A stretch of DNA of 64,000 nucleotides, taken from positions 283,494 to 347,493 of the forward strand of contig CP138194.1 in the NCBI GenBank assembly GCA_033560715.1, given 5' to 3'. How positions within the stretch are numbered: the stretch's first letter is position 1; every line of letters begins with the position of its first letter. This document shows positions 32,032 through 55,015 of this stretch, one piece after another. Made by a program: the position numbers and the translations under genes. Source of the DNA: Mycoplasmatota bacterium (GTDB taxonomy: Bacteria; Bacillota_I; Bacilli_A; Mycoplasmatales; MT37). The notes beneath the pieces are model-generated. The model saw only the letters and a program-made list of their open reading frames with translations. It ran no database searches and was not told where the DNA came from.

Positions 32032-33621
32032 TTATTTTTGATGATTTAAACACTTATTAATAAAGGTTAAAAATAAAGGGTTAGGGTTTAATGGTCAAGA
32101 AGTTCATTCAGGATGAAATTGGACAGCTACAAAAAAAGGATGATTTTTGAGTTCTAAAATAACCGGAATATTTTGATCGTCACGACCACTGAAAACCAGA
32201 TTATTTTTGATAAAATCAGTTTCAAAAAGATTATTATACTGAAAACGATTTCGAAATCGACCAAATACAGTTGAAGATTGAAAAATTTTTGCTGTTAAAG
32301 TGTTTGGTGTTAATGAAATTTTCTGGACACCAATATTGATATTTTTCATATTTGGATCAAACCAATCAATAATTGGAAATGCTGTTTTAGGATCAAATTC
32401 AGTTGAATTTGCATTCATTTTTTTTAAAACATTACGTGCTAATTCAATTAAAACGAGTTGAAATCCTAAACAAATTCCTAACAACGGAATTTTATTTTTG
32501 CGTGCGTATTCAATTGCAATCATTTTGCCTTCAGTTCCACGTTTTCCAAAACCACCCGGAATCAGAATACCATCGTAACCATTTAATCGTTGTGAAACGT
32601 TTGCAACTGTTAATTCTAATGGATTTATTTCATCGTATACAAAGGCAATTTTATGATAATTGCAAGCAATTAAAAGTGCATGATAAAGCGAAAGATATGA
32701 TTGACGAAAATTAGGATATTTATTAACAATCGCGATTTTAATTGGTTGATTAGTTTTGGCAATTTCAAAATTTTTCGTAATTGTTAATCAACTGTCAGGA
32801 TTTTGATGGTCTTTCAAATTTAAACGTTTACATAAACTATTAAATAGTCCAGATGCTTTAATTGTTTTTGGAATTAAATAAATGTTTTGATCAGGAATTT
32901 GTACTGTTTGATTAGAATCAAGAAAAGTTAGTTTTTGAAATTTGGCCATGATTTCATCGGGAATTATACGATCGCAACGCGCAAAAACAAAATCAGGTTC
33001 AATTGCGTGTTCACGCAATTCTTGAATTGAATGTTGTGCTGCTTTAGTTTTAAATTCTTCAACATGACTTAAAAACGTAATGTAAGTTAAATACGTAAAT
33101 GCGACTTTTTGAACCCCGTATTTACGTTGCATTTGTTTTGCGGCAGTTAAAAAAACCCGAATATCATTATTCGTTACTGTCCCACCAAGTTCGATAATAA
33201 AAATATCAGTAGTTGGATTATCGATGAATAATTTTTCATAACGATCTTTAATTTCAGCAACAACTTGATAAAAATCAATTGTTTTCCCAAGAAACTTGCC
33301 AAGTCGTTCTTTTTTTAGTAATTCTGAATAAATTTGTCCACCGGTAATCAATGATTGACGAGTTAAATTTTGATTTAAAAATCGTTCATAATGCCCTAAA
33401 TCAAGATCAGTTTCTAATCCATCATTAGTAACAAATACTTCACCGTGTTCATTGGGATTTAAAAATCCCGGATCAATATTTAAATAGCTATCATTTTTTT
33501 GAATAATGACGGTGTTATTGTTCTCTTTAAAAAGTTTTCCTAATGAAGCGGCAACTAAACCTTTTCCAATTCCTGAAAAAATACCACCAATAACAAAAAT
33601 AAAACGTTGATTAGATTTCAT
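32032..33621 (-). CDS. pyrG: CTP synthase
   Basis: Fragments 32788..33621 and 32104..32523 are in one frame (529 aa). N-terminus FIFVIGGIFSGIGKG. The glutamine amidotransferase domain has GICLGFQL and FHPE. Confidence 0.95.
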
Positions 33622-33709
33622 ATATTTAATAACTTTTATTTAAAAGAATTAAAAACAATTCACTTTATTAATCGATATCAATAAAATAATTGATTAATAA
33701 ACAAATTAA

Positions 33710-33735
33710 GCACATAAAATGTGCCTAATTTTTTT
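33710..33735. terminator. GCACAT-AAA-ATGTGC hairpin flanked by T-runs on both strands
   Basis: 6-bp GC-containing stem at 33710-33724. On the + strand it is followed by 7 T (33729-33735). On the - strand it is followed by UUAAUUUGUUUAUU. It lies between the tracrRNA candidate and the pyrG start, about 90-110 nt upstream of the pyrG ATG. Confidence 0.4.
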
Positions 33736-33737
33736 AT

Positions 33738-33862
33738 TAAAATAATTTGGGGCTTTTGGGATCCCCAACCCTACAGGTTACTACGAAATGTAGACCTTTA
33801 TCTTATTACTTTAGAAAAAAAGTTAAAACTTCTTTTCTAGTTACCGAATATAATTATATCAT
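33738..33862 (-). ncRNA. Candidate tracrRNA (anti-repeat interrupted by a hairpin)
   Basis: + strand blocks ATCTTATTAC (33800-09) and TAGTTACCGAATATAAT (33838-54) match repeat nt 1-8 and 10-25. On the - strand they are therefore complementary to + strand pre-crRNA. Downstream on the - strand are AAAGGUCUACAUUUCGUAG and a GC-rich hairpin UUGGGG..CCCCAA (33747-68) plus AUUAUUUU. Confidence 0.55.
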
Positions 33863-33909
33863 CAAAAATGATTTTAAAAATATAAAATTAAAATAAATAA
33901 AAATCAAAA

Positions 33910-34806
33910 ATGAGTTGAAAAACAATTGTTGTTCGAATTAGTGATTATCTGTTCTTAAAAAACGGACAATTACATTTTAAACAAGAAAACCAAACCACAG
34001 CGTTTCCAATTAAAGATATTAATTGTATTATCATTGAAAAAACGAATACAAATTTATCTGTCCCTTTATTAAATGCATTAATAAAAGCTAATGTTTATGT
34101 CATTTTTTGTAATGAAAAACATGATCCAAACGGTGTTATTTTACCGTTTCATAATCATTTTCAACCACTAAAGATTTTAAATTATCAACTTGAAATGGGA
34201 AAAAACTTAAAAAAACAAATATGAACAAAATTAATTGAAACAAAGATTCAAAATCAAATTGCCGTTTGTAAAATGTTGAAAATTAATCCCGAAAACATTG
34301 AAAAACAACAAACATTATTGAAAAAATTAATTTTCAATGATCCACAAAATTATGAAGGTATTACAGCGCATTTATTTTTTAAAGCTTTATACGGTAGTAG
34401 TTTTGTTAGACACACTGATGATGGGATTAATTCCGCTTTAAATTATGGTTATAAAATTATTGTTTCAGCAATTTCTCGAACAATTGTAAAGTACGGATTA
34501 TTAAATTATTTGGGAATTCATCACGTTGGTAAAACTAATCAATTTAATTTAGCATATGATTTAATTGAACCGTTTCGACCATTAGTTGATTATTTTGTTA
34601 GTTCGATGGGTGAAGAAATTGACGATTGTTTAATTTATAATCAACGCCTAAAATTAATTAATATTTTAAATTTTAAGGTCCTAATTAAAAATCAACAACA
34701 TACTGTTATAAATGCAATCGAAATAATGATAAATCACTTTGTTCAAACAATTAAAAATAATGATTTTAATACTTTTGTTGTTCCAAAGTTAATTTTTGAA
34801 AATTAA
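33910..34806 (+). CDS. cas1: CRISPR-associated endonuclease Cas1 (type II)
   Basis: ATG at 33910 gives MSWKTIVVRISDYLFLKNGQLHFKQEN... (type II Cas1 N-terminus, W encoded by TGA). It is in frame with fragment 34273..34806 (298 aa). Followed by cas2. Confidence 0.9.
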
Positions 34807-34850
34807 AACGAGTTTTTGTTAAAATAAATTTAAGAATAGAAGATGATTCA

Positions 34851-35180
34851 ATGAATTCAAGAATTAGAATGATGCGAATTCTTTTAATGTATGATTTACC
34901 AAGTACAACTGTCAAAGCACAGAAAATTTATAATGTTTTTCACAGTTTTTTATTAAAAAATGGTTTTTATATGATTCAAGAATCAATTTATTGTTGTTTT
35001 GCCAAAAGTTATATGACAGCAAAATTAGTTATTAAAAAAGTACAAAAAAATAGTCCGAAAATTGGTGATGTTCGTTGTTTAGTTATCACGGAAAAACAAT
35101 ATCAAGAAATGCATTTTTTTGCTGGTAAACGCAGTTATCAAGAAATGCTTTTTAATCCTGATCCAATTTTAGAAATTTAA
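34851..35180 (+). CDS. cas2: CRISPR-associated endoribonuclease Cas2
   Basis: 109-aa ORF. MRILLMYDLPSTTVKAQKIYNVFHSFLLKNGFYMIQESIY matches the Cas2 ferredoxin-fold N-terminus pattern (LhhYDh...R..F...L...GF..hQ.SVY). Confidence 0.9.
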   Translation: MNSRIRMMRILLMYDLPSTTVKAQKIYNVFHSFLLKNGFYMIQESIYCCFAKSYMTAKLVIKKVQKNSPKIGDVRCLVITEKQYQEMHFFAGKRSYQEMLFNPDPILEI

Positions 35181-35185
35181 TTATT

Positions 35186-36364
35186 ATGAAAACAATTGAA
35201 ATTACTAATCTTCGCTTTGAACGGCAAAAAATTACCTTTGAAGATCGTTTGGCAATCTTAACTGGTCATAATCGATCAGGAAAAACATTAATTTTAGAAC
35301 AAATTGCTGATGCTTTAAAAGAAGGTAGTAATCATGTTTTAATTGATCAACAACCGGTTCAAAGAGGTCAGTTTCAAGTTGCTTATTTATCAAGCGAAAC
35401 ACGATTAAAAGATGAAATCAAATTAACCAAAACAAGTTCGTTTCGTAATCATTTAATTTCCAAAATTAATCATTTATTAATTAATGATCAAAATTATCAA
35501 CAACTTAGTTCGCAAATTGATCAATTAGCAAATAAAATTGAAGAATTAACTAATTTAGCATTAAATCCACACGCTAATGCTTTTACGAATCAAAATATTA
35601 AATTAAAATTTGATACTTCAAAATTTAGTTTGGAAAAAATTGTTGATAAATTATTAAACATAGATTTGATTAATCAAATTAATCAAAATTCACTCGATGA
35701 AAAAAGTTTTAATAGCTTTTTATTAAGAATGGTCGTTTTTAATGTTTTATTGGCAGGTTTAAATTTTACCGATTTACAAAGACCGATTGTGATTTTAATT
35801 GATGATCCAGCAGCGTTTGCAAATTATCAAACTCTTACTGAATTTGCGTTCGAATTAAGAAAGTTATTAAAATTTGAAAATCTTTACATTTGTATTGCAA
35901 CTAGTAATGCTGATTTTGTACAGCAAATGAATTGTAAAATTAGTGCAATTCATTACATTAAAAATCGTCAAATTATTGATTTTAAAAATTATCAAACTAT
36001 TATTGAAAAAGCTATTACCATTTTTAGTTTTTGAAAAAGTACTGACCATCAAAATTGACAGGCATATCAAATTGCATTGAAACCAATTCTTGAAATTGCA
36101 GATTTAGAACGCGAATTTACATTGTTTTGACAAAGTGAATTTTTAAATTGATTTAAAATGTTATTTGCTAATCAAATTACCTTTATTAATGAAAGTGAAT
36201 TAATTAAATTTGATTCGGCTAGTGAAAAATTTAATTTAATTTCACGCTCAAATTATAAAAATCAAATTATATTATTTTGTTTTGCAAAAGCGTTTGAAAT
36301 TAAAACGGTTTTTAGTGAAAAAAATCAACAAAAATATCAAAAAATTAACTTTTTATGAAGTTAG
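35186..36364 (+). CDS. csn2: Csn2-position protein, 392 aa, P-loop NTPase with intact Walker A and B
   Basis: Fragments 35186..36034 and 36158..36358 are in one frame joined by TGA, with TAG at 36362-64. It is the fourth gene after cas1-cas2 and directly before the leader, which is the II-A csn2 slot. Walker A is GHNRSGKT (aa 27-34) and Walker B is IVILIDD (aa 201-207). Confidence 0.7.
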
Positions 36365-36386
36365 TTTTTTCAAAAACATGAATTTT

Positions 36387-36420
36387 TTGCAATAAAATCT
36401 AAATTTATTGCAACTTTTTT
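36387..36420 (+). terminator. Rho-independent terminator after csn2
   Basis: 10-bp stem TTGCAATAAA-ATCTAAA-TTTATTGCAA followed by C and six T. Confidence 0.6.
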
Positions 36421-36469
36421 GAAAAAAGAATTTTAAAAAAAATGATAAATGATTATTTTTTTTGTTCGG

Positions 36470-36498
36470 TTAGAACGAATAAATTAAAAATTTATAAT
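36470..36498 (+). promoter_or_regulatory. Putative leader promoter for the CRISPR array
   Basis: TTAGAA (36470-75), a 17-nt spacer, then TATAAT (36493-98), about 30 nt upstream of the first repeat. A second TATAAT lies at 36521-26. Confidence 0.45.
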
Positions 36499-36527
36499 AC
36501 TTTTTTGGCATGTGTTTTGTTATAATG

Positions 36528-39500
36528 GTCTTATTCAGTTACCAAATTTAATAGAATAAATACTTTTAATAATCTGTTTTGAACCCCCCTGTTAGTCTTA
36601 TTCAGTTACCAAATTTAATAGAATAAATACAACTTTTAATAATCTAAGTCGTGTCCTTTGAGTCTTATTCAGTTACCAAATTTAATAGAATAAATACCTA
36701 CAAACGAATTAAAGGCAAAGGTAATTAGTCTTATTCAGTTACCAAATTTAATAGAATAAATACTTTGTGTTATAAGTGGTAATACATTTGGGTGTCTTAT
36801 TCAGTTACCAAATTTAATAGAATAAATACTATTCATTGTTAAATTCCTTTTGTTTATAAGTCTTATTCAGTTACCAAATTTAATAGAATAAATACGCTTT
36901 TTGTTCGGTTGGTAATTTATCAGTGGTCTTATTCAGTTACCAAATTTAATAGAATAAATACATAATTGAGATTGAAGTGCTTTAACTAATAGTCTTATTC
37001 AGTTACCAAATTTAATAGAATAAATACCATTATTAGCGTCAAGTGGTTTATCATTTTGTCTTATTCAGTTACCAAATTTAATAGAATAAATACTTATTGT
37101 TCTGATAATTGCAAACAAGAACACGTCTTATTCAGTTACCAAATTTAATAGAATAAATACGGCCCCATCAAACGACATTATTTAGTCATAGTCTTATTCA
37201 GTTACCAAATTTAATAGAATAAATACACTTGTTTTATGCCACTGGCGATAGAAATAGTCTTATTCAGTTACCAAATTTAATAGAATAAATACTGGTAGCG
37301 TTGCGAATACACAATTCCAACCGTCTTATTCAGTTACCAAATTTAATAGAATAAATACCTGGCGTTTCATACCCATCTGGTATTCCAGGTCTTATTCAGT
37401 TACCAAATTTAATAGAATAAATACAATGAAAAACAATTAAAAAAAGCTATTCAGGTCTTATTCAGTTACCAAATTTAATAGAATAAATACTCAAAGACAC
37501 GCCATTAGCAAAAATCATTCGTCTTATTCAGTTACCAAATTTAATAGAATAAATACAACGATCGGTGCTGCTGTTGGTGGGTTTATGTCTTATTCAGTTA
37601 CCAAATTTAATAGAATAAATACAATTTCTGTGTTTTCTTTATTTTTTTTGTCGTCTTATTCAGTTACCAAATTTAATAGAATAAATACTAAATAGCATTG
37701 TTACGAATATCTGCTACTGTCTTATTCAGTTACCAAATTTAATAGAATAAATACTAAGCGGCAAGGTGATTGTGCCCAAAACCTGTCTTATTCAGTTACC
37801 AAATTTAATAGAATAAATACTTAAATATCGCAAGGAAGATTTAGAGAGAGGTCTTATTCAGTTACCAAATTTAATAGAATAAATACTTCGTTATTACTTT
37901 CTAATGCTGGTGCTGGGTCTTATTCAGTTACCAAATTTAATAGAATAAATACAAAGTGAAATATTTTTTGAAAAAATAATTGGTCTTATTCAGTTACCAA
38001 ATTTAATAGAATAAATACAGAAGTTATTAACAAGCGAAGAATGAGATGGTCTTATTCAGTTACCAAATTTAATAGAATAAATACAATGACGAAAAACTAC
38101 TATATAGAGAAAGCGTCTTATTCAGTTACCAAATTTAATAGAATAAATACTTAACCGCATTAGGTGTTGGTAAATTACCGGGTCTTATTCAGTTACCAAA
38201 TTTAATAGAATAAATACTTTATTCCTTCAAACTAATATAATTATATTGTCTTATTCAGTTACCAAATTTAATAGAATAAATACTTAGAAGGGTATTTAAT
38301 AACCGCTTTTGTTGTCTTATTCAGTTACCAAATTTAATAGAATAAATACGTAATTCCAGTCATATCACTTGATAAGATTGTCTTATTCAGTTACCAAATT
38401 TAATAGAATAAATACTTGATTATTTTTACCATAGCGCTCCCTTGAGTCTTATTCAGTTACCAAATTTAATAGAATAAATACTTTGTAGCTACACATAAAA
38501 CGAAGCAACAGGTCTTATTCAGTTACCAAATTTAATAGAATAAATACCAATCAGCACGCAATCGTTGAAAAAAACAAGTCTTATTCAGTTACCAAATTTA
38601 ATAGAATAAATACGGGGAAAAAAGGGACTCCAATGACCTATCTGTCTTATTCAGTTACCAAATTTAATAGAATAAATACAATAACTACCACCGCCCGCCC
38701 GAGCGTTATGTCTTATTCAGTTACCAAATTTAATAGAATAAATACATTATTTTTTGTTTTTGAACTCGAAAAATAGTCTTATTCAGTTACCAAATTTAAT
38801 AGAATAAATACGTGTTATTTGTTAATCATTTGCTGATTGCTGTCTTATTCAGTTACCAAATTTAATAGAATAAATACGTTGTAGTGGCCTTAGTCGCTAG
38901 TTTATTAGTCTTATTCAGTTACCAAATTTAATAGAATAAATACTTAGTGTGTTAATCTTTGCTTTATTAGTAGGTCTTATTCAGTTACCAAATTTAATAG
39001 AATAAATACAGCAATTAAGTTTAAGGCGTCTAATCAATCGTCTTATTCAGTTACCAAATTTAATAGAATAAATACTAATAGCAAAGCAAGTTAGAAAGAT
39101 ACAAGGTCTTATTCAGTTACCAAATTTAATAGAATAAATACACATTTAATTATAACTATAAAGAATTATCGGTCTTATTCAGTTACCAAATTTAATAGAA
39201 TAAATACTTAATCATCGTTGATTAAATACTTTTTGCTGTCTTATTCAGTTACCAAATTTAATAGAATAAATACAGAAATATATTATTATGAACAACAACA
39301 ATAGTCTTATTCAGTTACCAAATTTAATAGAATAAATACTTATTATTGTTGTTGTTGGTGTTGGTGTTGGTCTTATTCAGTTACCAAATTTAATAGAATA
39401 AATACGTAATTCCAGTCATATCACTTGATAAGATTGTCTTATTCAGTTACCAAATTTAATAGAATAAATACAAAACTTCCCTATGTTTAATAACCTTCTT

Positions 39501-42500
39501 CGTCTTATTCAGTTACCAAATTTAATAGAATAAATACAAAATTAAAAATGAAGTTAAAGAAAAAAAAGTCTTATTCAGTTACCAAATTTAATAGAATAAA
39601 TACAACTTTTTGAACTTGAAAACGGGAATGTAGGTCTTATTCAGTTACCAAATTTAATAGAATAAATACAAAATAATAAATTTAAAGAATTATTAGAAAG
39701 TCTTATTCAGTTACCAAATTTAATAGAATAAATACTTGTTAAGGGAGTAAATTAAAATAATGGGTGGTCTTATTCAGTTACCAAATTTAATAGAATAAAT
39801 ACACATAAAAAGTCGCCAGTCTAGACAATGGGGTCTTATTCAGTTACCAAATTTAATAGAATAAATACAATGTAATTATGGAGATTACCCAGCATGTTGT
39901 CTTATTCAGTTACCAAATTTAATAGAATAAATACCGTTTGTTTGTTTCTCTGTATTGTTGATTAGTCTTATTCAGTTACCAAATTTAATAGAATAAATAC
40001 AATTGCACCATAAGTATCATCATAATTTACGTCTTATTCAGTTACCAAATTTAATAGAATAAATACTTGACGTTAATTGTGAAAAATGTAACCAATGTCT
40101 TATTCAGTTACCAAATTTAATAGAATAAATACCGATTATTGCGTTAAATGCGGAGCGTGTCCGTCTTATTCAGTTACCAAATTTAATAGAATAAATACTT
40201 GTCGGTGCACCTTCAATTCTTCCTTTTGTCTTATTCAGTTACCAAATTTAATAGAATAAATACCAGTATCATTTAGCGCTTGCTTAGTTAATGGTCTTAT
40301 TCAGTTACCAAATTTAATAGAATAAATACTTTCAATTCACGCAACGAACCAAAAGAAGAGTCTTATTCAGTTACCAAATTTAATAGAATAAATACTCTCT
40401 AATTGTTTTCTAAATTCCATCTCGGGTCTTATTCAGTTACCAAATTTAATAGAATAAATACATTTCAGGGATGTAGTAAAGAATACTTAATGTCTTATTC
40501 AGTTACCAAATTTAATAGAATAAATACTTAACATTGAAGAAGCTAACTCGTCTAATGGTCTTATTCAGTTACCAAATTTAATAGAATAAATACTTTCCTC
40601 CTTCTTACAACAATAATCGCCGTGTCTTATTCAGTTACCAAATTTAATAGAATAAATACATGATGAAGTGTTGTTAAAATATGGTTTCAGTCTTATTCAG
40701 TTACCAAATTTAATAGAATAAATACTTAAATAACAATAATCAACCGCAAGCAGCAAGTCTTATTCAGTTACCAAATTTAATAGAATAAATACAAAAGAAG
40801 TGAGAGCTACATAGATAAAATAGTCTTATTCAGTTACCAAATTTAATAGAATAAATACCAAAACACCCCCTAACGCCTCTCGCCCGCCGTCTTATTCAGT
40901 TACCAAATTTAATAGAATAAATACTTTGCGACAATGAAGAAGAACTTAAGGCGGGTCTTATTCAGTTACCAAATTTAATAGAATAAATACTTTGAGTTGG
41001 GTGTTTAGTAATAGAAGGGTGTCTTATTCAGTTACCAAATTTAATAGAATAAATACTTTGCGATAACAACGAACAATTAACGGCGGGTCTTATTCAGTTA
41101 CCAAATTTAATAGAATAAATACTATTCTAACCCCCCCGTCCCCCTTAACATAGTCTTATTCAGTTACCAAATTTAATAGAATAAATACTCTAAACATCGA
41201 GACGTGAACATATAACACTGTCTTATTCAGTTACCAAATTTAATAGAATAAATACCGTTAAAGTATTTATTACCACCAGCTAATAGTCTTATTCAGTTAC
41301 CAAATTTAATAGAATAAATACAGCGAACAAAATAATTAAGGAAACTGTAGAGTCTTATTCAGTTACCAAATTTAATAGAATAAATACGTATTCAGTGATT
41401 CATTGATTATCTAAAAAGTCTTATTCAGTTACCAAATTTAATAGAATAAATACGCTTTGTTTTTTTTGATCGGAGCAATTTTAGTCTTATTCAGTTACCA
41501 AATTTAATAGAATAAATACAATAATATACCATAATAAAACTTCTTTATCGTCTTATTCAGTTACCAAATTTAATAGAATAAATACTCTAAGTTAATTATT
41601 CCGGCCGGGTAAGTTGTCTTATTCAGTTACCAAATTTAATAGAATAAATACGTAATTAACTTTTTTAGCAAATTTTCCGATGTCTTATTCAGTTACCAAA
41701 TTTAATAGAATAAATACAAAAATTCTGCATCGTTATTTTGAGTTGTCGTCTTATTCAGTTACCAAATTTAATAGAATAAATACTTTTAACATTACCAAAC
41801 ATAAACTGGACAAGTCTTATTCAGTTACCAAATTTAATAGAATAAATACTACCTGATGGTAATACAAAATTAGATGTTTGTCTTATTCAGTTACCAAATT
41901 TAATAGAATAAATACAAAATTCGATAAAACAGGAGATGTTAGCTAGTCTTATTCAGTTACCAAATTTAATAGAATAAATACAAAGCGCTTGGTCTTCAAA
42001 GTCCTGATACTGTCTTATTCAGTTACCAAATTTAATAGAATAAATACAAAATCTAATGGGATATATAATTTTTGATAAGGTCTTATTCAGTTACCAAATT
42101 TAATAGAATAAATACGATGATTATATAAATGAACTGGTTCCGCATGTCTTATTCAGTTACCAAATTTAATAGAATAAATACCCTCCGTCTAAATTATAAG
42201 TCATTCCAATAGTCTTATTCAGTTACCAAATTTAATAGAATAAATACGAAAGCAAATAGTGATTACACAACTCATATCGTCTTATTCAGTTACCAAATTT
42301 AATAGAATAAATACCCTTAACCACCATTTTAGTCATATAGCTCAGTCTTATTCAGTTACCAAATTTAATAGAATAAATACAAACATTAACCGATTGCGAC
42401 CTGTTATCAGGTCTTATTCAGTTACCAAATTTAATAGAATAAATACTTTATAAAGAAATTGAAAAAATTAAAAAAGGTCTTATTCAGTTACCAAATTTAA

Positions 42501-45500
42501 TAGAATAAATACCAGTCGTTTTAGAGATAAAAAGTACATCGTGTCTTATTCAGTTACCAAATTTAATAGAATAAATACTAAACTACTCCGTTAGTAAAGA
42601 TGTTTTAAGGTCTTATTCAGTTACCAAATTTAATAGAATAAATACTTTAGAATATTTAATTACTAATAAAATACTGTCTTATTCAGTTACCAAATTTAAT
42701 AGAATAAATACTTGGGAAAATAAAACTCGCATTTACTTATGGTCTTATTCAGTTACCAAATTTAATAGAATAAATACTTTCCACTTTCTCACATGATTGG
42801 GTTATAAGGTCTTATTCAGTTACCAAATTTAATAGAATAAATACTTAAAAAAATGAAAATGGTGAAAAAATAAAGTCTTATTCAGTTACCAAATTTAATA
42901 GAATAAATACTGTAAAAGAATACTACGATACACCATTCCTGTCTTATTCAGTTACCAAATTTAATAGAATAAATACAACAAAAAAAGGATGAATATGTCA
43001 CTTTTAGTCTTATTCAGTTACCAAATTTAATAGAATAAATACGCCGACGAGAGACGCCACGCTCAGGACTGGGTCTTATTCAGTTACCAAATTTAATAGA
43101 ATAAATACACGCTTAACGAGCAAGTAATTGGTTACCAAGTCTTATTCAGTTACCAAATTTAATAGAATAAATACCAAGGAAACACTGGACCAACTGGAAT
43201 AGCGGGTCTTATTCAGTTACCAAATTTAATAGAATAAATACAAAAGATATTAACTAGTGAAGAATGAGACAAGTCTTATTCAGTTACCAAATTTAATAGA
43301 ATAAATACTGAAGTTTCTAAACCAGTATTTAATAACACGTCTTATTCAGTTACCAAATTTAATAGAATAAATACTTTCTAAAAGTAATATATTTATTGCT
43401 GATAGTCTTATTCAGTTACCAAATTTAATAGAATAAATACCATTTTTGAATTTTCTAAATCTAATTCTTTGTCTTATTCAGTTACCAAATTTAATAGAAT
43501 AAATACCATCTTTACTAACGCCTTAGTTTAACGATTGTCTTATTCAGTTACCAAATTTAATAGAATAAATACGACCTTTATCGGGAGGATTAGGATCATG
43601 AGGTCTTATTCAGTTACCAAATTTAATAGAATAAATACTAATTAGTAGCTTGATTACTAATTTGGAGTGTCTTATTCAGTTACCAAATTTAATAGAATAA
43701 ATACGCTTTGGATCTTTAATGTTTGAATACCCGAGTCTTATTCAGTTACCAAATTTAATAGAATAAATACCAATATAAAAGATATCAACATTAGAAAGTT
43801 GTCTTATTCAGTTACCAAATTTAATAGAATAAATACTAATTAACATTTTATTACTATCATAAAAGAGTCTTATTCAGTTACCAAATTTAATAGAATAAAT
43901 ACGTTGGAAGTTGCTCCACAGGAGACGAAATGGTCTTATTCAGTTACCAAATTTAATAGAATAAATACAAAATGACAAACCGCTTGACGCTAATAATGGT
44001 CTTATTCAGTTACCAAATTTAATAGAATAAATACCCAATATTCATTTCTTCGAGTTTGAACTGTGTCTTATTCAGTTACCAAATTTAATAGAATAAATAC
44101 GGCGTTAATTTTTTATATATACATATGGAAGTCTTATTCAGTTACCAAATTTAATAGAATAAATACTTAATTCTAACCCATGAGCACCAAAAACAGGTCT
44201 TATTCAGTTACCAAATTTAATAGAATAAATACACGACATTGCTTATTCGCGACCAATAACATGTCTTATTCAGTTACCAAATTTAATAGAATAAATACTG
44301 TTGCTCCTGTTTGACGGCATTCGCAATATGTCTTATTCAGTTACCAAATTTAATAGAATAAATACTTGCGATAACAACGAACAATTAACGGCGGAGTCTT
44401 ATTCAGTTACCAAATTTAATAGAATAAATACCAGTTGGTCCAGTTGGTCCAGTGTTTCCTTGTCTTATTCAGTTACCAAATTTAATAGAATAAATACTTT
44501 CTAAAAGTAATATATTTATTGCTGATAGTCTTATTCAGTTACCAAATTTAATAGAATAAATACCTTTTTTCTGCCGCTTCAATTTTTTGTTCTGTCTTAT
44601 TCAGTTACCAAATTTAATAGAATAAATACACTTATTTTGTTAATCACTTTGTTTATGTTGTCTTATTCAGTTACCAAATTTAATAGAATAAATACTTTTA
44701 TCTCTTTGTGAATTCGTAAATTCACGTCTTATTCAGTTACCAAATTTAATAGAATAAATACAATGATGAAAGAAAGAATGAGATAAATATAGTCTTATTC
44801 AGTTACCAAATTTAATAGAATAAATACTTTAACTTTAATATTAAAAATGGTTTTATGGTCTTATTCAGTTACCAAATTTAATAGAATAAATACTAATAAA
44901 ACAATCAATATTGAACTGGTCACGTCTTATTCAGTTACCAAATTTAATAGAATAAATACTTAATAATTTTTTATATATTTAATATCGCAGTCTTATTCAG
45001 TTACCAAATTTAATAGAATAAATACAACGCCTTAATGAACCATACACGAATTATTGTCTTATTCAGTTACCAAATTTAATAGAATAAATACTTGTCTCAT
45101 CAAGTTTTAAAACTTTTACCAGTCTTATTCAGTTACCAAATTTAATAGAATAAATACATTTAATAGCGTTTGTTATTCGTGTTGCGTGTCTTATTCAGTT
45201 ACCAAATTTAATAGAATAAATACATAGAGTGCGTGGAAATAGTCATTAAAAGGGTCTTATTCAGTTACCAAATTTAATAGAATAAATACATAACATTAAA
45301 TTAAATGTTGTTTGAATTAGTCTTATTCAGTTACCAAATTTAATAGAATAAATACCAAAATTTACTAAAATCTATTCATCAACAAGTCTTATTCAGTTAC
45401 CAAATTTAATAGAATAAATACCAAAAATTCTAAATTTGAAAACAAATATTGGTCTTATTCAGTTACCAAATTTAATAGAATAAATACTTGTTGCTACATT

Positions 45501-48500
45501 TACTAATTATAATGATAGTCTTATTCAGTTACCAAATTTAATAGAATAAATACCATTGGGGAACTATATACCAAGAAAAAGTAGTCTTATTCAGTTACCA
45601 AATTTAATAGAATAAATACTTTTAGTTCCTTGAACAAATAATTGAACTCGTCTTATTCAGTTACCAAATTTAATAGAATAAATACAGGCGTTTGTTCGTT
45701 TAGATAATGATAATTGTCTTATTCAGTTACCAAATTTAATAGAATAAATACTTTAGCTCAAGCCGTTAAATCACCGTGTTTGTCTTATTCAGTTACCAAA
45801 TTTAATAGAATAAATACATTGTTTGTTCTCAAAATTTATTAGTTTCAGTCTTATTCAGTTACCAAATTTAATAGAATAAATACACCATATTAAATTTAAA
45901 AATGCATATTTGGGTCTTATTCAGTTACCAAATTTAATAGAATAAATACTTAATTATAATAATTTTCATATAAATAAATGTCTTATTCAGTTACCAAATT
46001 TAATAGAATAAATACGAATATCGCCAGTGTCTAATCGCTCTACAAGTCTTATTCAGTTACCAAATTTAATAGAATAAATACATATTATAGCTAACATCAA
46101 CTTTTTTTATAGTCTTATTCAGTTACCAAATTTAATAGAATAAATACATTAGTTTTCAGTTCTTTTAGATAAACTCAGTCTTATTCAGTTACCAAATTTA
46201 ATAGAATAAATACTTTTTATTTAATGAATATCCACATTCACTGGTCTTATTCAGTTACCAAATTTAATAGAATAAATACAATACAAATTCAGTATAAATA
46301 CAAATTGAAGTCTTATTCAGTTACCAAATTTAATAGAATAAATACTGCAAACAAATTTTAGTTGTTAATGTTAAAGTCTTATTCAGTTACCAAATTTAAT
46401 AGAATAAATACAGGTAAAGATAATGGTTAATTTTGTGCGTCGTCTTATTCAGTTACCAAATTTAATAGAATAAATACTTAAACCATATATTAAACAAGCA
46501 GCACCAAGTCTTATTCAGTTACCAAATTTAATAGAATAAATACATAATAATAATAATAATAGTAAAAATTATTGGAGTCTTATTCAGTTACCAAATTTAA
46601 TAGAATAAATACTGATTCCTGTCGTGTTATTTGAAACTCCAAGTCTTATTCAGTTACCAAATTTAATAGAATAAATACTGGTCCGCTCAAATTGTCGCCG
46701 CAATTTGTGTCTTATTCAGTTACCAAATTTAATAGAATAAATACCAAAATATACCCCACCAAAACGTAATTGGTGTCTTATTCAGTTACCAAATTTAATA
46801 GAATAAATACGTATCGTGTCCCACTCACAGCGTCTATTTCGTCTTATTCAGTTACCAAATTTAATAGAATAAATACTTTCTTTTAATACTGGTTGTTCGT
46901 TTTGCAGTCTTATTCAGTTACCAAATTTAATAGAATAAATACTGGAAAACAAAAAAGCAAATAAAATAATTGGTCTTATTCAGTTACCAAATTTAATAGA
47001 ATAAATACATAGATAGCGTGGAAATAAGCCTTAAAGGGGTCTTATTCAGTTACCAAATTTAATAGAATAAATACATAATTATCAAAGCACAGACAGAGAA
47101 TGTAGTCTTATTCAGTTACCAAATTTAATAGAATAAATACATAGCGGTTAATCCAACCAACAAACGAGCCGTCTTATTCAGTTACCAAATTTAATAGAAT
47201 AAATACATGCTTTTATTGTTTTGTGCGGTGGGAGAGGTCTTATTCAGTTACCAAATTTAATAGAATAAATACTAAAAAAACCAGCCTGGACATTTCAAAG
47301 TAGTCTTATTCAGTTACCAAATTTAATAGAATAAATACTTAATTGATTTTTTGATTCAAAAAGAAGGGGTCTTATTCAGTTACCAAATTTAATAGAATAA
47401 ATACGTAATTAACTTTTTTTGCAAATTTTCCTAAGTCTTATTCAGTTACCAAATTTAATAGAATAAATACCTTCTTTTAATGCTTCTTCGATTAATTCGT
47501 GTCTTATTCAGTTACCAAATTTAATAGAATAAATACTCGCTCGTCTCTTTCAATTGCTCCACTGTTGTCTTATTCAGTTACCAAATTTAATAGAATAAAT
47601 ACTTAAAGTGAATCATATATTCACTAATATTAGTCTTATTCAGTTACCAAATTTAATAGAATAAATACAACTGGTTAAATTACCCCAGAACCCCCTTTGT
47701 CTTATTCAGTTACCAAATTTAATAGAATAAATACTTAAATATAGTAATGTAATTGATTTAGAAAGTCTTATTCAGTTACCAAATTTAATAGAATAAATAC
47801 GAATATCTCCCGTATCTAATCTTTCGACAAGGTCTTATTCAGTTACCAAATTTAATAGAATAAATACTAGTAAAATATTAAGTAAAGCGTGAAGCAAGTC
47901 TTATTCAGTTACCAAATTTAATAGAATAAATACTCTCCTAATACAGCTCACATTGTTAGATGTCTTATTCAGTTACCAAATTTAATAGAATAAATACAAT
48001 ATTCGTTTGTTCCAAAAACAACAGGCTGTCTTATTCAGTTACCAAATTTAATAGAATAAATACATAAAGTCTTTCATAGTTTTTATCTCCTTTGTCTTAT
48101 TCAGTTACCAAATTTAATAGAATAAATACGAATATCTCCCGTATCTAATCTTTCGACTAGTCTTATTCAGTTACCAAATTTAATAGAATAAATACCAAAT
48201 TTTGTCTTTTGAAGTGAAATATACAGTCTTATTCAGTTACCAAATTTAATAGAATAAATACTCCATTTATTAAATCAGTCGAACACTGATAGTCTTATTC
48301 AGTTACCAAATTTAATAGAATAAATACAAGTTTGAATAATCAAGATTAAACGAACAAGTCTTATTCAGTTACCAAATTTAATAGAATAAATACCAGCTGC
48401 GGAAATAGTCGAGTGCGTCAATTGTCTTATTCAGTTACCAAATTTAATAGAATAAATACTTCTAATTCAAGGTTTAACTCCTTTACTGAGTCTTATTCAG

Positions 48501-49778
48501 TTACCAAATTTAATAGAATAAATACACCTTAAAAAAGCAAACGAAGCAAAAAGTGTCTTATTCAGTTACCAAATTTAATAGAATAAATACATTTTGGCAT
48601 CTAACAACATCGTCAAAATGGTCTTATTCAGTTACCAAATTTAATAGAATAAATACATTATTACAACCGCTTTAATCAATCATTAGGTCTTATTCAGTTA
48701 CCAAATTTAATAGAATAAATACGAAAAACAGCAACGAAACAAACGAAATTGCGTCTTATTCAGTTACCAAATTTAATAGAATAAATACAAAAAATATTAA
48801 CTAGTGAAGAATGAGATGGTCTTATTCAGTTACCAAATTTAATAGAATAAATACGAGTTTATAACCGCTTGACAGTCCGCCAAAGTCTTATTCAGTTACC
48901 AAATTTAATAGAATAAATACTATTTTAGTATCAAATTGAAGTCCGACGGAGTCTTATTCAGTTACCAAATTTAATAGAATAAATACTGTTTGCGGACAAG
49001 TTTGTTAATTACTTAGGTCTTATTCAGTTACCAAATTTAATAGAATAAATACTCGAATTACTCGAAGAACTAAGTCCTTATCGTCTTATTCAGTTACCAA
49101 ATTTAATAGAATAAATACCGCTAAAAGTCGCCAGTCTAGATAAGTAGGGTCTTATTCAGTTACCAAATTTAATAGAATAAATACTTTTTAGCAGGTTGTG
49201 CTGTTCGTTTTGTTGTCTTATTCAGTTACCAAATTTAATAGAATAAATACAGAAGGTATATTACGACCTTCTTTTAATGTGTCTTATTCAGTTACCAAAT
49301 TTAATAGAATAAATACGAATTAAAACTTAAACAATTAAAATTAGAGGTCTTATTCAGTTACCAAATTTAATAGAATAAATACAAGCAACTGAAATTTTTA
49401 TGGCCCGTGGTGGTCTTATTCAGTTACCAAATTTAATAGAATAAATACACTAAATTAAGCAAGTTAATCGGCGTTAGTCGTCTTATTCAGTTACCAAATT
49501 TAATAGAATAAATACAACCAAATTATCCTTTACCAAAACATATATGTCTTATTCAGTTACCAAATTTAATAGAATAAATACGAAATTCTTCTGCTTTAGT
49601 GGGTTCAACAAGTCTTATTCAGTTACCAAATTTAATAGAATAAATACATTTAAATAAAAAGTCATACGGACATGTTAGTCTTATTCAGTTACCAAATTTA
49701 ATAGAATAAATACTATCAGTTGCTATTTCTACTTCGTCTTGTAGTCTTATTCAGTTACCAAATTTAATAAATAAATAC
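36528..49778 (+). CRISPR. Type II-A CRISPR array, about 201 repeats of 36 nt and about 200 spacers
   Basis: The repeat is GTCTTATTCAGTTACCAAATTTAATAGAATAAATAC. The first copy is at 36528-36563. The period is 66 nt (spacers 29-33 nt, mostly 30). Every repeat I read is identical except the last (49744-49778), which lacks the G of AATAGAAT. (49744-36528)/66 = 200.2. Polarity is set by the csn2-side leader and the degenerate distal repeat. Confidence 0.97.
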
Positions 49779-49797
49779 TTTAATATAATTTATTTCG

Positions 49798-50958
49798 TTA
49801 TCTGGAAAAAATTATCACCATTATTATTACTACTACTACAATGTAAAAAAAGTTTTGTATGACAACTTTGTTTTTTCTTGTTTTGTGTTTTTTGTTATAA
49901 CACTCTTTACAAAAAAGAGTATTGGTTAATGGTCTTATTCCAAATTTTAATAATTCGCTTTTTGGAAATGTATTAAAACATTCGTTGCATTTTCCTGTTC
50001 TTAATTTTAAGCGTTTTTGTCCTTTAGATTCTAAAATATTAATTAAAACTTCTTGTCGTTGTGATTGTAAATTTATTTCATATTTAATTGTTTGTATCAT
50101 TTTTAATTTTTCTGTTAATTGATCTTTGGTGATTGGTTTCAATTTATCTAACTGTTCTTCCATTTGTTTAACTTTGATCTTTGAATTGTTTAATTTTTTG
50201 GTGAAAAATGGTATTGTTTTTGAAATAATATTACTACAATATCGTTCATATATGTTGTGTTTATTATATTCTGTTGTTAATACTTTACTATCTTGCATAT
50301 TCATTCAATTATCAAAGTCTTTTATTTGTCAATAAATTCATTCGTTCATTACTTCGTTGTTTTTTAAAGCGTTAATAATTGTTTCTTTTCTCTGTTGTGA
50401 TTTTTTTATTTTTTGTTTTTCTACTTTCTTTATTAAAAGTTCGTCTTTTGAATAACGAATATATCTCATATATTTGAATTCATAATTGAATATTCCATTA
50501 AATCCTTGCCTTTCAGAGTTGTATTTGGTTATATATGTTTGTTCTTTTTCTTCAATTGTGAAAATATCTAAATTTTTATAATTAGGAATAAATTCTAAAA
50601 TTTCAAACTTAACATTTTCCAAACTTAAATTAAACTCTATTAATTTCATAAATAATTTTTGATAAAAAGCATAATTAGCACTAACCGAATTGAATTTAAT
50701 AAAATTAATTAAATAATTTGTAAAATTTTTATATTCGCCCGTATCTTTAATCAAACGTTTATCGTTATTTAATGTCGCATTAATTAATGTTTTATGTTTG
50801 CTTAATCTAGCATAAATATTAACACTTATACCAATATACGATTGTTGATTTTGTGTTTTGGGATTGGTTATGAAAATTCTATAAATTCCGCTGGATTTTA
50901 ATTTGGTCTTTGTATCTTTATCTAAATTATGTAATTCAATTAAATTAAATGTATTCAT
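49798..50958 (-). CDS. I-TevI-like GIY-YIG homing endonuclease with C-terminal CxxC..CxxC zinc ribbon and hydrophobic tail
   Basis: ORF-track fragments 50338..50958 and 49798..50304 are in one frame joined by three TGA codons (386 aa). GIY at aa 24-26, YIG at aa 41-43, and ARLSKH. FEILEFIPNYKNLDIFTIEEKEQTYITKYNSERQGFNGI resembles the I-TevI catalytic-core end. Also has CNEC..x19..CKEC. Confidence 0.8.
49932..49955 (+). repeat. Decayed CRISPR repeat beyond the trailer, inside the GIY-YIG ORF
   Basis: GTCTTATTC-CAAATTTTAATA matches GTCTTATTC[AGTTAC]CAAATTT-AATA, that is 20 ordered matches with a 6-nt deletion and a 1-nt insertion. The reading is confirmed by ORF-track protein 49922..50122 (..NGLIPNFNN..). 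Confidence 0.6.
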
Positions 50959-51097
50959 TTTTTGATTTTTCTTTTTCTGTAAAACTAATTTTAATTTTAT
51001 GTTTAAAAAGTGAAAAAATAATATTTCATGAATTAATTGCTAAAAAAAATTAAATATTACCATAAACATACTTTAAAAAGTTAATGAAATTAGGTAA

Positions 51098-51126
51098 TAA
51101 TTGCATTATTAAATTGCTGAATTTAA
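51098..51126 (-). repeat. Weak repeat-like segment in inverted orientation at the cas9 stop
   Basis: The - strand reads GATTAAATTCAG-CAATTTAATAATGCAAT against repeat ..TTATTCAGTTACCAAATTTAATAGAAT. Matches are ATTCAG plus ATTTAATA. The sequence is AT-rich, so this could be chance. Confidence 0.3.
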
Positions 51127-51127
51127 T

Positions 51128-54100
51128 CTAGATAACTTTACCTAATAAATCGACCTCTATTAATGATCATTTATTTTTGAAAAGATTAGAAACGCTATCA
51201 ACAGAATTATTAAAATTAAAAATTTTTTGTGTTTTGTCAGTCGATTTTGTAAGAGAATTAACTGATAAGTAAGCTTTTTTTTCATCTTTTCTGGAAAAAA
51301 AGCATTTCACAATATATTTGCCGTTTTTTTTAAGATTTTTATTATAAATTTTATTGTCGTAGTATTTAATTAATTTATTATGAAGTAATATTTTGGAATA
51401 ATCTTGAAATAAATTTTTGTTTTTTTTGGCATCATAAATAGAAATTCATTCATATTGATTTTTTTGTTGATTGCTGGAATCTAATTTTTGTAAAGGTGTT
51501 TTTAAGCCATAAAAACGTTTAATTTCAATAATATTACCAACTTTACCATCAACATTACCTGATGTTATAAATGGTTTAGATTTATTTTTTGGATCTTTTC
51601 AATTACAAAACTCAATTATTCAATTATTAAAATAATCATTACTAAAATAAATGTTATTTATTTGGTTTTTGGCATCTGTGTAAGTAATTTTATTATTTCG
51701 CAATCATAAGCGAAATAGTTTATTTTTTGATTTTTCTAAAATAGTTTTTTTTGGATTCGGTAATCCATTCAAAACAAAACCTAAATTTTCACTACTTGAA
51801 ATTTGACCACGGACTTTGTAACGCACCATTCGTGAAATGTGTGGATAATGCAAATCAATATTAGTAGTATCTAAATCTTTGGTTGCAATTTTTCATTCTT
51901 CTTCATTTAAAACATTAACATATTTTGGTAATTTACGACTCCCATTACAGTTTTGACATGCTAAATTTAGAATTTTTTTAGTTTCGGTATCAAAACACTT
52001 ACAATCAAGAATTTCTAATTCGACTGGAATACGCTTTTCTAATTGGTTTTGAAAATCATCAATGTATAAATTATTAACAAATTGATTTTTCCGATCAGCT
52101 AAATAAATTCTTTCCATGTATTCGTTAACATTGTAAAAACGTTTTTTTTGATCGTTTTTCGAAGCTGTTTTTAACGTTTTAATTTTATTTTTAATACTTT
52201 CCATAAACGCATTTTTATTTGCTAAAGCATTTGTTAATTTAGTTGGATTTCCTTCTGATTCAAATCGGTCAATTGCGGTTTTTAAATCTTTTAATTTAAT
52301 TAAATCAACTGCTAATTCAATATCCATTTTCTTTTTAAATTGACATAAAATACTTGCATCAATTGCATGATGGAATGGAGAAATATCACGTACTTTTTGA
52401 TCTAATCCTCAAGCAGAAGACGCTAATCATTTACGACGTAAACGTGATATCACTTGACCAACAACCGCAAAAACATTCGTTTTGATTTGGTGATTTTTAA
52501 ATTCTGATAATAAATAATTGTGAATGTATTTTGAAATGTAACGAGTGTCATTTAAATTACGACTAGCAAAGCCTTCGACTGCTTCTTCGACCGTTTTTGC
52601 TAATAAATAATTCGTTTTCGTTTTACCTAAATAATTTTCTAATTTATGAATTCGCATTGTAAATGTTTTTCAATTATTTTTTAAATATTGATACGGAATT
52701 TGTTGACCTTTTTGCTGATTTTCTTCAGTTAAAACCAAAACTTTATTATTTCGACTATCATCAGCACTTCAACTACGAGGAATAATATGATCGATTTCAA
52801 CCATTTTATCGACTGGATTAATATCTTTTAAATCAATTGTTTTTCCAGAATAAATGCATTGTTTGTTTTGTTGTTCTCAAAGTAAATAAGCTAAAATCGT
52901 TTTTTGATTTTGAGGAATATTGTTTTCTGCAAGTTTTTGAATTATTGCAATTTTTTTCTTTAAGTTTTTATCTTGTGCTTGTTCAATTTTATTACGATCT
53001 TTGGCTGATTTATAAATATCACGTCCAACTTCAACAGCAATGTTTTCAAATTGAGTGTATTTTTTATGTAATGCTTTTAAAATTAGTCGGGTTTGATTAA
53101 TTGCTCGAAATACAACTGGATTTGATGTCATTTCTAAATCAGTAAATTTAGCAAATAGTTTTTTTGAATTGCTATTTTTTTTAAATCGGGTTTGAATAAC
53201 TTCGTCTTGTTGTTTAACTTTTTCAGCTTGAAAATCAGCAAAATTAATTCCTTTTAAATACGCTTGAATGGCTTCTTTCATAAATTGGAAAGATACATTG
53301 GCAGGAGAAGTGACTAACTTTGGTGATAAAAATTGATTCATTGTTTTTGCATCAAATTTAATTTGAAATTTATTTAATAAATTTTCAATTGCTTTTTTAC
53401 GACGATGCGGCGTTATTCAACGACTAGTAAATGATCCAATTTGAGAAATTAAATTCTTTTCTCATTGATCAATGTTTTTTTCATTAATAGTAATTTTAGT
53501 TAAAAAGGGTTTTAAAGTTGAAGTTTCTCAACATGTTTTAAAAAAACTTGGGCGTTTTAATTCTAAACCACTTGATTTTTCACTTTGTCAAATTTTAATT
53601 TTTTTTGAATCGAGCAAATCTTTGTTACCATGAATTTTTCAAGCTGCACTTGCTTGAATGGCAATTTGAATTAACTTAATTGCTGCACGACGATCTTTTC
53701 AATCACTAGTTAACATTTGTTGTAAAACAGATTGTTTTTCAGTTGGAGTTAAAATTAATTTATGATTAGCTAAAATATTTCAAATCTTTGATAATTCATT
53801 AACATAATAGAAAACAGTAAATAAAATTGAAGCTTTCGTTCCACGATTTTCGGTTGGATAAAAATGACATTTTCCAGTCATATCTCAAAAAATACCAAAA
53901 TTTGAACAGTGTTTGTTTTTGCATTTGTGAAGTTGATTTTGATATGAATCAGGTGAATCAATCATTACTTTAGTACAATCATTACATTTCGCTCCCATTT
54001 CAAAATCACGACTTTGAAAAATAATTTTAATGATTTTTTCGCAATTTTCATTTGTTAATTCTTTCGGATAATATTGTTTTTGTTTTGATAAAATTGTTTT

Positions 54101-54916
54101 TGCTTCGTTTTGATAATCTTGGCGATCAAATAAATGACGAAAATTAATTCGTTTTGATAATTCATCACGTTGTTTTTTATCAATAACACTATTAACATCA
54201 ATATATTTTTTATATTGATCAGATTTAGATTTTTTATAAACTAATTTTGAACTATTTTTTGTAAATAAAATTCGGGTTGTTTTTGATGCTGATAAATGAA
54301 ATTGTGAATCTTGAATAACTGCTTTTGCAATTGATTGGTATTTTTTAATTAATTCCGAAGCTTTATTAGCTGAATCAGTTAATTTGGTTGTTTTCGCTTT
54401 TGTTGTTTTATCGTCTTTGCTTTGATTTTCATCATTTTCCAAACTAAACTTATCAGCATAACCACGTTTTTTGGCATAATTAATTAAAACGACATACAAT
54501 TCGTCTTTACTTAATTTATAATCTAATCCCTTTGCTTTTAAAACATACGGATTAAAATAACCGGATTCAGTTGTTCATTGATTGTTTTGAAACACAATTT
54601 TATTAGTTACTTTAAATTGGGTTTGAAAATTATCAATAAACGCTTGTTTATCAAATAAATTAATTTGATTAAGATGGCGTTTTAACATTTCTAAACGATG
54701 GAAACGTCGACGAATTAAACGTCGCGTTGAACGAAATTCACGGCGTTTAGTTGCTAAAGAAGTTTTTGTTTTACTTTCTTCAGCCACATCAAATAAACGC
54801 ACACCAAAATCATGCAAAGTGTGTTTGCCGGTTGTAACATCTTCGGCCATTACTGCTCAACCAACCGAGCTAATTCCTAGATCTAATCCAAGATAATATT
54901 TTAAATTTTTTGTCAT
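51128..54916 (-). CDS. cas9: CRISPR-associated endonuclease Cas9 (type II-A), 1262 aa
   Basis: AAAGAGG SD then ATG at 54914-16: [22 protein letters not shown] (RuvC-I). Fragments 54575..54850, 53885..54499, 52877..53341, 52427..52657 and 51893..52327 share one frame. HNH is [20 protein letters not shown], followed by NDTRYISKY and HHAIDASI (RuvC-III). I translated every codon from 51892 to the TAG at 51128-30 and found no TAA/TAG. Confidence 0.92.
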
Positions 54917-54936
54917 ATAAAAACCTCTTTAAATCA

Positions 54937-54968
54937 CTAAATTAAGGTTTAATTTAGTTTTATTTTTT
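54937..54968. terminator. AT-only hairpin between argS and cas9 with a T-run on the + strand
   Basis: CTAAATTAA-GGT-TTAATTTAG (9 bp) followed on the + strand by TTTTATTTTTT. On the - strand it sits between the argS stop and the cas9 SD. Confidence 0.35.
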
Positions 54969-55015
54969 AATAATAAATTTATTTTAACAGAATTAATAAT
55001 TGAACTAAAAATAAT

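Follow-up and report, generated by a model that had tools for sequence, protein, structure and literature searches.

A type II-A CRISPR-Cas locus of an uncultured Mycoplasmatota bacterium with the array between csn2 and an opposing cas9, an arrangement common among its relatives

What does it signify when the cas9 gene of a type II-A CRISPR-Cas system lies at the far end of the array and on the opposite strand? The question is raised by a 64,000-nucleotide (nt) stretch of contig CP138194.1 (positions 283,494 to 347,493) of a Mycoplasmatota bacterium (assembly GCA_033560715.1), hereafter the window, in which cas1, cas2, csn2 and the CRISPR array occupy the + strand and the sole cas9 occupies the - strand beyond the array trailer. 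The initial annotation of this DNA described the same split, convergent locus, with which our gene calls and a 201-repeat array agree, and took as its simplest reading an in-place inversion of a 16-kb block or a relocation of cas9. That reading is not supported by comparison with related genomes, most of which have the convergent layout: the layout is not a recent event in the window genome, and it is a documented, little-discussed mycoplasma variant, here from an uncultured lineage. The sequences very probably represent an intact and likely active II-A system with a lineage-inherited gene order, in which a predicted minus-strand trans-activating CRISPR RNA (tracrRNA) is followed by plus-strand cas1, cas2, csn2 and leader-array and then by a minus-strand GIY-YIG gene and cas9. 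We infer activity because the genes are intact and because two conspecific strains differ completely in their spacers.

Genes in the window were called with genetic code 4 (translation table 4, TGA read as tryptophan); a list of open reading frames (ORFs) made with the standard code broke up every gene, and table 4 yielded intact ones. Under code 4 the locus runs predicted tracrRNA (-), cas1-cas2-csn2-leader-201-repeat array (+), GIY-YIG gene (-), cas9 (-), argS (-), with the array lying between csn2 and cas9 (Table 1). The distances given in the initial annotation were accurate: 288 nt separate pyrG from cas1, 1348 nt separate the last repeat from the cas9 stop, and the cas9 ATG sits 99 nt from the argS stop. 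The window holds a single cas9 copy, and a search of the window for a cas9 remnant elsewhere found none. That cas9, annotated as having 1262 codons with intact RuvC and HNH motifs, is upheld by its family matches and invariant catalytic residues, and pyrG, argS and the arc genes do lie on its strand. Two points stood only in part. The 1.35-kb stretch from the last repeat to cas9 had been measured correctly, but the 386-codon GIY-YIG ORF that fills it (orf386) was missed; and the tracrRNA candidate had been rightly placed in the pyrG-cas1 spacer but wrongly counted in the plus-strand block, as it lies on the minus strand, divergent from cas1.

Relatives of the locus were found through homologues of Cas9, Cas1 and Csn2 and are mostly circular metagenome genomes of 0.40-0.68 Mb; the regions recovered from them carry L numbers here. 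The full cas1-to-cas9 layout recurs in three independently assembled relatives, with Cas9 identities of 86% (98.5% outside the domain that interacts with the protospacer-adjacent motif, PAM), 47% and 41%. The closest of these, strain B (L001 and L017), has the order pyrG (-), tracrRNA (-), cas1-cas2-csn2-array (+), cas9 and argS (-), identical to that of the window; its flanking genes are 99.3-99.9% identical to those of the window (argS 99%) and it is therefore conspecific. The second relative (L002 and L010; Cas9 47%, Cas1 70%) combines the window order with the same pyrG and argS flanks, and the third (L004 and L011; Cas9 41%) has the window order in a different chromosomal context. In five further relatives with Cas9 identities of 33-36% (L006, L007, L013, L014 and L016), cas9 faces an array on the opposite strand within the DNA recovered. 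The opposite-orientation array begins 18-57 nt past cas9 in L006, L007 (a Spiroplasma metagenome-assembled genome), L014 and L016, the cas9-proximal repeats being degenerate in L007, L014 and L016 and not in L006, and L013 reads cas9 (+) followed by csn2 and cas2 (-). The degenerate trailer repeat of strain B starts 9 nt past the cas9 stop, and in six genomes the trailer repeat and the cas9 stop are 9-57 nt apart. A distant non-Mollicute relative (L008, Cas9 30%) is colinear. The suggestion that synteny with related genomes be compared thus found the same layout, which the initial annotation had named as an outcome that would refute its reading, in most of them, complete in three and partial in five, with two relatives arranged otherwise.

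These two relatives, together with several other observations, weigh against a simple account of an inherited and active convergent locus. The convergent layout is not universal. In OZ239770.1 (L003/L005 and L009) the order is argS and cas9 (+), an orphan inverted repeat, cas2, csn2 and leader-array (+), an orf386 relic, cas1 (-), tracrRNA (+) and pyrG (+). It is the window layout with a second inversion of cas2-csn2-leader-array, by which cas1 was left behind on the other strand; the orphan inverted repeat adjoins the cas9 stop (L003 13706-13816 and L009 10890-11900), and a 13-nt sequence, TAGTTTTTTGTTA, with GGTGAT stands in inverted orientation at both breakpoints, in an assembly of only ~8x coverage. 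In OZ026450.1 (L015 13393-16382), a Spiroplasma endosymbiont, cas9 (+) is followed by leader-array (+) and then by csn2, cas2 and cas1 (-). Furthermore, L006, L007, L014 and L016 cover the cas9 side only, and the orientation of their arrays was taken from repeat similarity and, in three, from degenerate end repeats. Promoter scans returned promoter-like matches that were no commoner than in shuffled AT-rich sequence, so the transcription units discussed below are inferred and promoter-like motifs were used only where conserved across species. An intrinsic terminator was sought between the array and orf386/cas9 and none was detected, which, together with the gaps of 9-57 nt in relatives, implies that the converging transcripts would overlap or stop at the trailer. 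As regards spacer targets, 8 kb of the array, searched by BLAST in phage genomes, yielded only one chance match of 27 nt, and two pattern scans of IMG/VR with sequence common to spacers of both strains gave nothing or chance matches of 19 nt; no PAM was therefore inferred. In all convergent or inverted relatives cas9 stands apart from the complete cas1-cas2-csn2 operon, and the array is inside the locus wherever both sides were recovered.

In the Spiroplasma endosymbiont the leader ends in ATTTGAG, the array has 11 repeats, and a degenerate repeat faces the csn2 3' end.

A recent event specific to the window genome, either inverting the roughly 16-kb tracr-cas1-cas2-csn2-array block in place or relocating cas9, could appeal to the shared strand of cas9, pyrG, argS and the arc genes, and to OZ239770.1 as showing that large inversions occur inside such a locus. 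It would have to account for a conspecific strain and a species of 47% Cas9 identity that share both order and flanks with the window, for another genome (41%) that has this order in a different context, and for a cas9 facing the array in five more genomes at 33-36%; a search for inverted repeats around the block found only low-complexity matches, and we regard such an event as very improbable. That the block was mis-oriented by the assembler is the least credible explanation of all, although assembly is difficult for long arrays whose repeats are identical and the L002/L010 contig is broken within its array. Assemblies from five samples (ERZ25067906, ERZ25067901, ERZ25071792, ERZ25067557 and ERZ25073755) show cas9 facing an opposite-strand array, four of the five contigs are marked circular, and the junction sequence is unique; moreover, the array repeats all have one orientation and so could not give rise to a spurious inversion. 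The agreement of independent assemblies thus disposes of the artefact that the initial annotation had named as another outcome that would overturn it.

Site-specific inversions are common in mycoplasmas, and the observed layout might be one of several interconverting states of modules that still switch, either phase-variably or through a proneness to recombination. The presence of three arrangements in the clade (that of the window, OZ239770.1 and OZ026450.1) speaks for this, as do TAGTTTTTTGTTA and GGTGAT in inverted orientation at both OZ239770.1 breakpoints. The differences, however, lie between species and not inside one population, no recombinase gene adjoins the locus, no inverted repeats flank it in the window, and the 13-mer overlaps the promoter-like motif TGTTAAAAT and may be conserved for other reasons; we consider ongoing switching improbable, if somewhat less so than a recent inversion. 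The reading that we prefer, lineage inheritance, likely goes back to an inversion or relocation that took place long ago, at the base of this Mollicute Cas9 clade, with later module inversions in some branches.

Polarity within the locus can be read from its features. On the + strand the array runs towards cas9 according to four of them: the degenerate repeat at the cas9 end, TGnTATAATG at the leader junction, the orientation of the tracrRNA anti-repeat, and the tracrRNA terminator. In L013 and L014 the tracrRNA is directly upstream of cas9 and on its strand, and the orientation of its anti-repeat likewise indicates that the CRISPR RNA (crRNA) would be transcribed towards cas9. Because these independent features agree, we place the leader at the csn2 end with transcription towards cas9, as in the initial annotation, which had the precursor crRNA (pre-crRNA) aimed head-on at cas9. 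Their agreement matters because the degenerate-repeat rule fails in some II-C systems (Chylinski et al., PMC3737331).

Lying on the opposite strand, cas9 cannot be co-transcribed with cas1-cas2-csn2, and its transcriptional uncoupling from the adaptation genes, proposed at the outset, holds. It has its own Shine-Dalgarno (SD) sequence, AAAGAGG, and the extended -10-like motif TGTTAAAAT in the 99-nt spacer next to argS; the same motif ahead of cas2 (~34816-34825) is the best promoter-like site in the region, and the 17-mers ahead of cas9 and cas2 are nearly identical. We propose at least three transcription units. The tracrRNA would be transcribed from the minus strand and end at its own terminator before pyrG; the adaptation operon would be transcribed from the plus strand, followed by a pre-crRNA governed by the -10 box that touches the first repeat, with a predicted start ~7 nt into repeat 1; and cas9, with orf386 after it here, would be transcribed from the minus strand, having a promoter-like box and an SD to itself downstream of argS. 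Expression of cas9 would then be independent of the adaptation operon, and pre-crRNA and cas9 mRNA would converge, with whatever regulatory effect such convergence may have.

The predicted tracrRNA rests on conservation across species and not on a duplex-energy scan. On the + strand of the pyrG-cas1 spacer, 33826-33850 resembles the repeat in sense orientation, which places an anti-repeat on the - strand; after it, on that strand, come a conserved tail and a hairpin bearing a U-tract. The candidate begins with the first part of the anti-repeat, which an inserted hairpin of 34 nt separates from the second part (AAUAAGAU); then come a nexus-like stem, a GGGG/CCCC hairpin and, last, a terminator hairpin (33703-33731). 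Tail and terminator are conserved in three species, in which 10 predicted pairs have changed on both sides, and strain B matches the whole intergenic region at 100% identity. A scan of 33-37 kb found no Rfam match to a tracrRNA family; chance AT-rich matches prevailed in a sliding RNA-duplex scan for anti-repeats, which did not rank the window candidate; and the tatD-cas1 region of L011/L012 did not align to the window tracrRNA region, the tracrRNA of that genome not having been located.

The predicted anti-repeat is split by a ~30-nt hairpin in the window (33780-33862, -), in L009 (9840-9912) and in L010 (9860-9935), and the sequence of this hairpin differs among the three species with its pairing maintained; this implies that a three-way junction may replace the usual bulge in the crRNA:tracrRNA duplex. 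In addition, a 17-nt exact copy of the 3' half of the repeat (TTTTTAATAGAATAAAA) occurs in the tracrRNA tail region of L009 (9778-9795) and L010 (~9850), and a degenerate copy in the window (33733-33752). This copy may represent another segment of anti-repeat, a remnant of the origin of the tracrRNA, or a shared -10-like element (TAGAAT) directed towards cas1.

Regarding the proteins, the window has the features by which type II-A is recognised: a RuvC/HNH Cas9, type II cas1 with cas2, csn2, and an array with 36-nt repeats and ~30-nt spacers. It departs from the single-strand operon cas9-cas1-cas2-csn2-array, which is typical of the type and not defining in the classification. Cas9 matches its family model together with HNH_4 (PF13395) and RuvC_III (PF18541), and the catalytic residues D12, H710, N733, H849/H850 and D853 are invariant in a 13-sequence Cas9 alignment; Cas1 and Cas2 match their respective models (Table 1). 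The 392-amino-acid (aa) product of the fourth gene was not matched by the Csn2 models of Pfam and NCBIfam. We identify it as Csn2 because residues 3-374 match the PADLOC model PDLC01597 ('Csn2, CAS-II-A'), and the type II-A label therefore holds. Its N-terminus has weak ABC/RecF/PtuA-like P-loop similarity, with only weak P-loop matches in a PDB profile search, an intact Walker A motif (GHNRSGKT) and a Walker B-like motif, ILIDDP. Only 11 homologues were found, all of them within the loci of relatives. A Mycoplasma-specific fourth cas gene was described in 2013 (PMC3737331), which fits a Csn2 that Pfam and NCBIfam miss.

Within the array, 200 of the 201 36-nt repeats are identical, the sole degenerate one being the last, nearest cas9, and 180 of the 200 spacers are 30 nt long. 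The leaders of four species have the end TGnTATAATG, touching repeat 1, in common and differ elsewhere. With 201 repeats in the window and 232 in strain B, both arrays exceed the 3-105 repeats reported for mycoplasmas (PMC8725752). The locus (33700-54916, ~21 kb) takes up ~5% of the 414,516-bp genome contig, and arrays in relatives of 0.40-0.46 Mb measure 12.5-15 kb, with possibly ~28 kb in L004/L011, of which the two ends were recovered. In each of the six related repeat families compared, the 3' half of the repeat retains the hexamer TAnAAT; in the window it occupies positions 25-30 of each repeat (e.g. 36552-36557), ~7 nt ahead of each spacer. This hexamer could reflect repeat-embedded promoters like those of Neisseria and Campylobacter II-C systems, which are conceivable for arrays of 13-28 kb, or a constraint imposed by tracrRNA or by Cas1-Cas2. 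Pairs of spacers are reverse-complementary (37023-37062 with 43964-44003, and 43175-43210 with 44427-44462), which means that the same protospacer was taken on both strands, and two spacers are duplicated exactly inside the window array. Over 40000-50000 the + strand GC skew is persistently negative (~-0.10 to -0.15) and differs from that of the flanks, which suggests that the acquired spacers are biased in strand or composition.

Comparison with strain B also reveals where the locus has changed. From the right flank inwards the two DNAs are ~98% identical up to cas9 codon ~1047, where identity vanishes (51128-51775 against L001 13141-13684). Cas9 residues 1-1040 are 98.5% identical and residues 1041-1262 ~30%, the latter being no closer to any other known relative. 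The 200 spacers of the window and the 231 of strain B have none in common, those at the trailer end included, and the degenerate terminal repeats differ; a few spacers of the two strains overlap the same protospacers with offsets (e.g. B120 and W165, over 25 nt with an offset of 2). Left of the array, identity is restored: 97% in the leader, 98.7% in csn2, ~99.3% in cas2 and cas1, and 100% in the tracrRNA region. The differences thus form one contiguous block, outside which the strains are 97-100% identical, and it is the convergent layout that makes the 3' end of cas9, encoding the PAM-interacting (PI) domain, contiguous with orf386 and the array. Natural swapping of PI domains has been published (bioRxiv 10.1101/2021.05.01.442224). 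PAM specificity and the spacer set may conceivably have been replaced jointly as a single cassette, with the conserved cas9 core and the identical repeats or the leader as homology arms and the polymorphic, homing-endonuclease-like GIY-YIG gene at the junction perhaps promoting the exchange, a scenario that we hold to be possible and, on balance, unlikely.

In the orf386 product a divergent GIY-YIG nuclease domain is combined with a coiled region, a zinc ribbon (CxxC...CxxC) and a transmembrane helix at the C-terminus. The protein is rare: among 1.84 billion representatives, 19 homologues of its N-terminal domain were found, and 4 of 10 homologues scanned pass the Pfam GIY-YIG cut-off; no match was found in a phage collection (by tblastn), in PDB or among PHROG families. 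The gene is absent from strain B, and a frameshifted relic adjoins the OZ239770.1 trailer (L009 11137-11801). This presence/absence polymorphism and the relic suggest that orf386 is a selfish or accessory, possibly mobile, insertion between cas9 and the trailer and not a core component.

Table 1. Features of the CRISPR-Cas locus and its flanks, in window coordinates
Feature	Coordinates	Strand	Evidence or remark
rpoC, rpoB	left of pyrG		table-4 ORFs
pyrG (CTP synthase), left flank	32032-33621	-	table-4 ORF; adjoins cas1 in three relatives too (L009, L010, L017)
predicted tracrRNA	33698-33862	-	anti-repeat, terminator-like site, cross-species tail conservation
cas1 (type II)	33910-34806	+	TIGR03639, 7.5e-84; PF01867
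cas2	34851-35180	+	TIGR01573, 3.6e-19
csn2, Mollicute-type long variant, 392 aa	35186-36364	+	PADLOC PDLC01597, 7e-43
leader	36365-36527	+	TGnTATAATG (36518-36527) touching repeat 1, conserved across species
CRISPR array, 201 repeats of GTCTTATTCAGTTACCAAATTTAATAGAATAAATAC and 200 spacers	36528-49779	+	last repeat (49744-49779) degenerate
orf386, 386 codons, divergent GIY-YIG nuclease domain	49798-50958	-	Pfam GIY-YIG, 0.0034; TIGR04104, 2e-4
cas9, 1262 codons, intact	51128-54916	-	TIGR01865, 1.7e-144; HNH_4; RuvC_III; invariant catalytic residues
cas9 3' part, ~residues 1047-1262 (C-terminal, presumed PAM-interacting domain)	51128-51775	-	no DNA homology to conspecific strain
argS-cas9 spacer	54917-55015	-	TGTTAAAAT at 54989->54981; SD AAAGAGG
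argS, right flank	55016-56665	-	adjoins cas9 in three relatives too
arcC, arcD, arcB, arcA	beyond argS	-	table-4 ORFs

Among the neighbouring genes, the arcD-like transporter (57828-59528) has 89% identity to strain B, against 99.6-99.9% for its neighbours arcC, arcB and arcA, and marks a second place at which divergence or recombination is locally concentrated.

Together these comparisons indicate that a design with the array in the middle and a convergent cas9 has been stably inherited across a deep Mollicute Cas9 branch, at identities down to ~33%. The convergence point is very tightly packed, the trailer repeat of relatives lying 9-57 nt from the cas9 stop. The tolerance of further module inversions argues that the interference and adaptation modules of II-A systems function well when transcribed as separate units. 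Such loci offer natural material for studying the termination of converging pre-crRNA and cas9 transcripts, and their layout permits asking whether PAM specificity and spacers tend to turn over together where the PI domain is linked to the array.

Being a lineage trait already on record for mycoplasmas, the split layout is no mark of recent rearrangement or error. Chylinski et al. (PMC3737331) describe Mycoplasma II-A loci with a reoriented cas9 and a shifted tracrRNA position, and Ipoutcha et al. 2019 (PMC6882279) give the usual Mollicute order as cas9, tracrRNA, cas1, cas2, array, with 'some inversions' in five Mycoplasma strains. A further survey (PMC8725752) places the array between cas9 and csn2 for M. 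hyosynoviae 232 and M. arthritidis 158L3_1, and reports yet another order in M. salivarium. The published Mycoplasma loci resemble that of the window in having a code-4 Mollicute host, cas9, cas1, cas2, a Mycoplasma-type fourth gene and 36-nt repeats, and in having an array that parts cas9 from the adaptation genes and a tracrRNA in a shifted position, a comparison made by described layout, the best named matches of the window being to Spiroplasma. They differ in array length, that of the window being far longer (201 repeats as compared to 3-105). In M. salivarium ATCC 29803 and ATCC 23064, whose order is given as csn2, cas2, cas1; array; cas9; tracrRNA (PMC8725752), a Mollicute II-A array likewise lies between the adaptation genes and cas9, but there cas1 adjoins the array and the tracrRNA follows cas9, whereas in the window csn2 and the leader adjoin the array and the predicted tracrRNA is beside cas1.

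Compared with S. pyogenes SF370, in which a divergent tracrRNA precedes cas9, cas1, cas2, csn2 and leader-array on one strand, the window has the same components, a predicted tracrRNA divergent from the first cas gene, a leader between csn2 and the array, co-directional adaptation genes and array, 30-nt spacers and 36-nt repeats. It differs in that its cas9 is not the first gene of the operon and lies beyond the trailer on the other strand, in that its Csn2 is a long P-loop variant missed by Pfam and NCBIfam, and in that its predicted anti-repeat is interrupted by a hairpin. Finally, the II-C systems of N. meningitidis and C. jejuni (PMC3737331) share with the window an array transcribed opposite to cas9 and, in principle, the possibility of TAnAAT acting as a repeat-embedded -10 box; they are without csn2 and have cas9-cas1-cas2 as one operon, whereas in the window only cas9 opposes the array.

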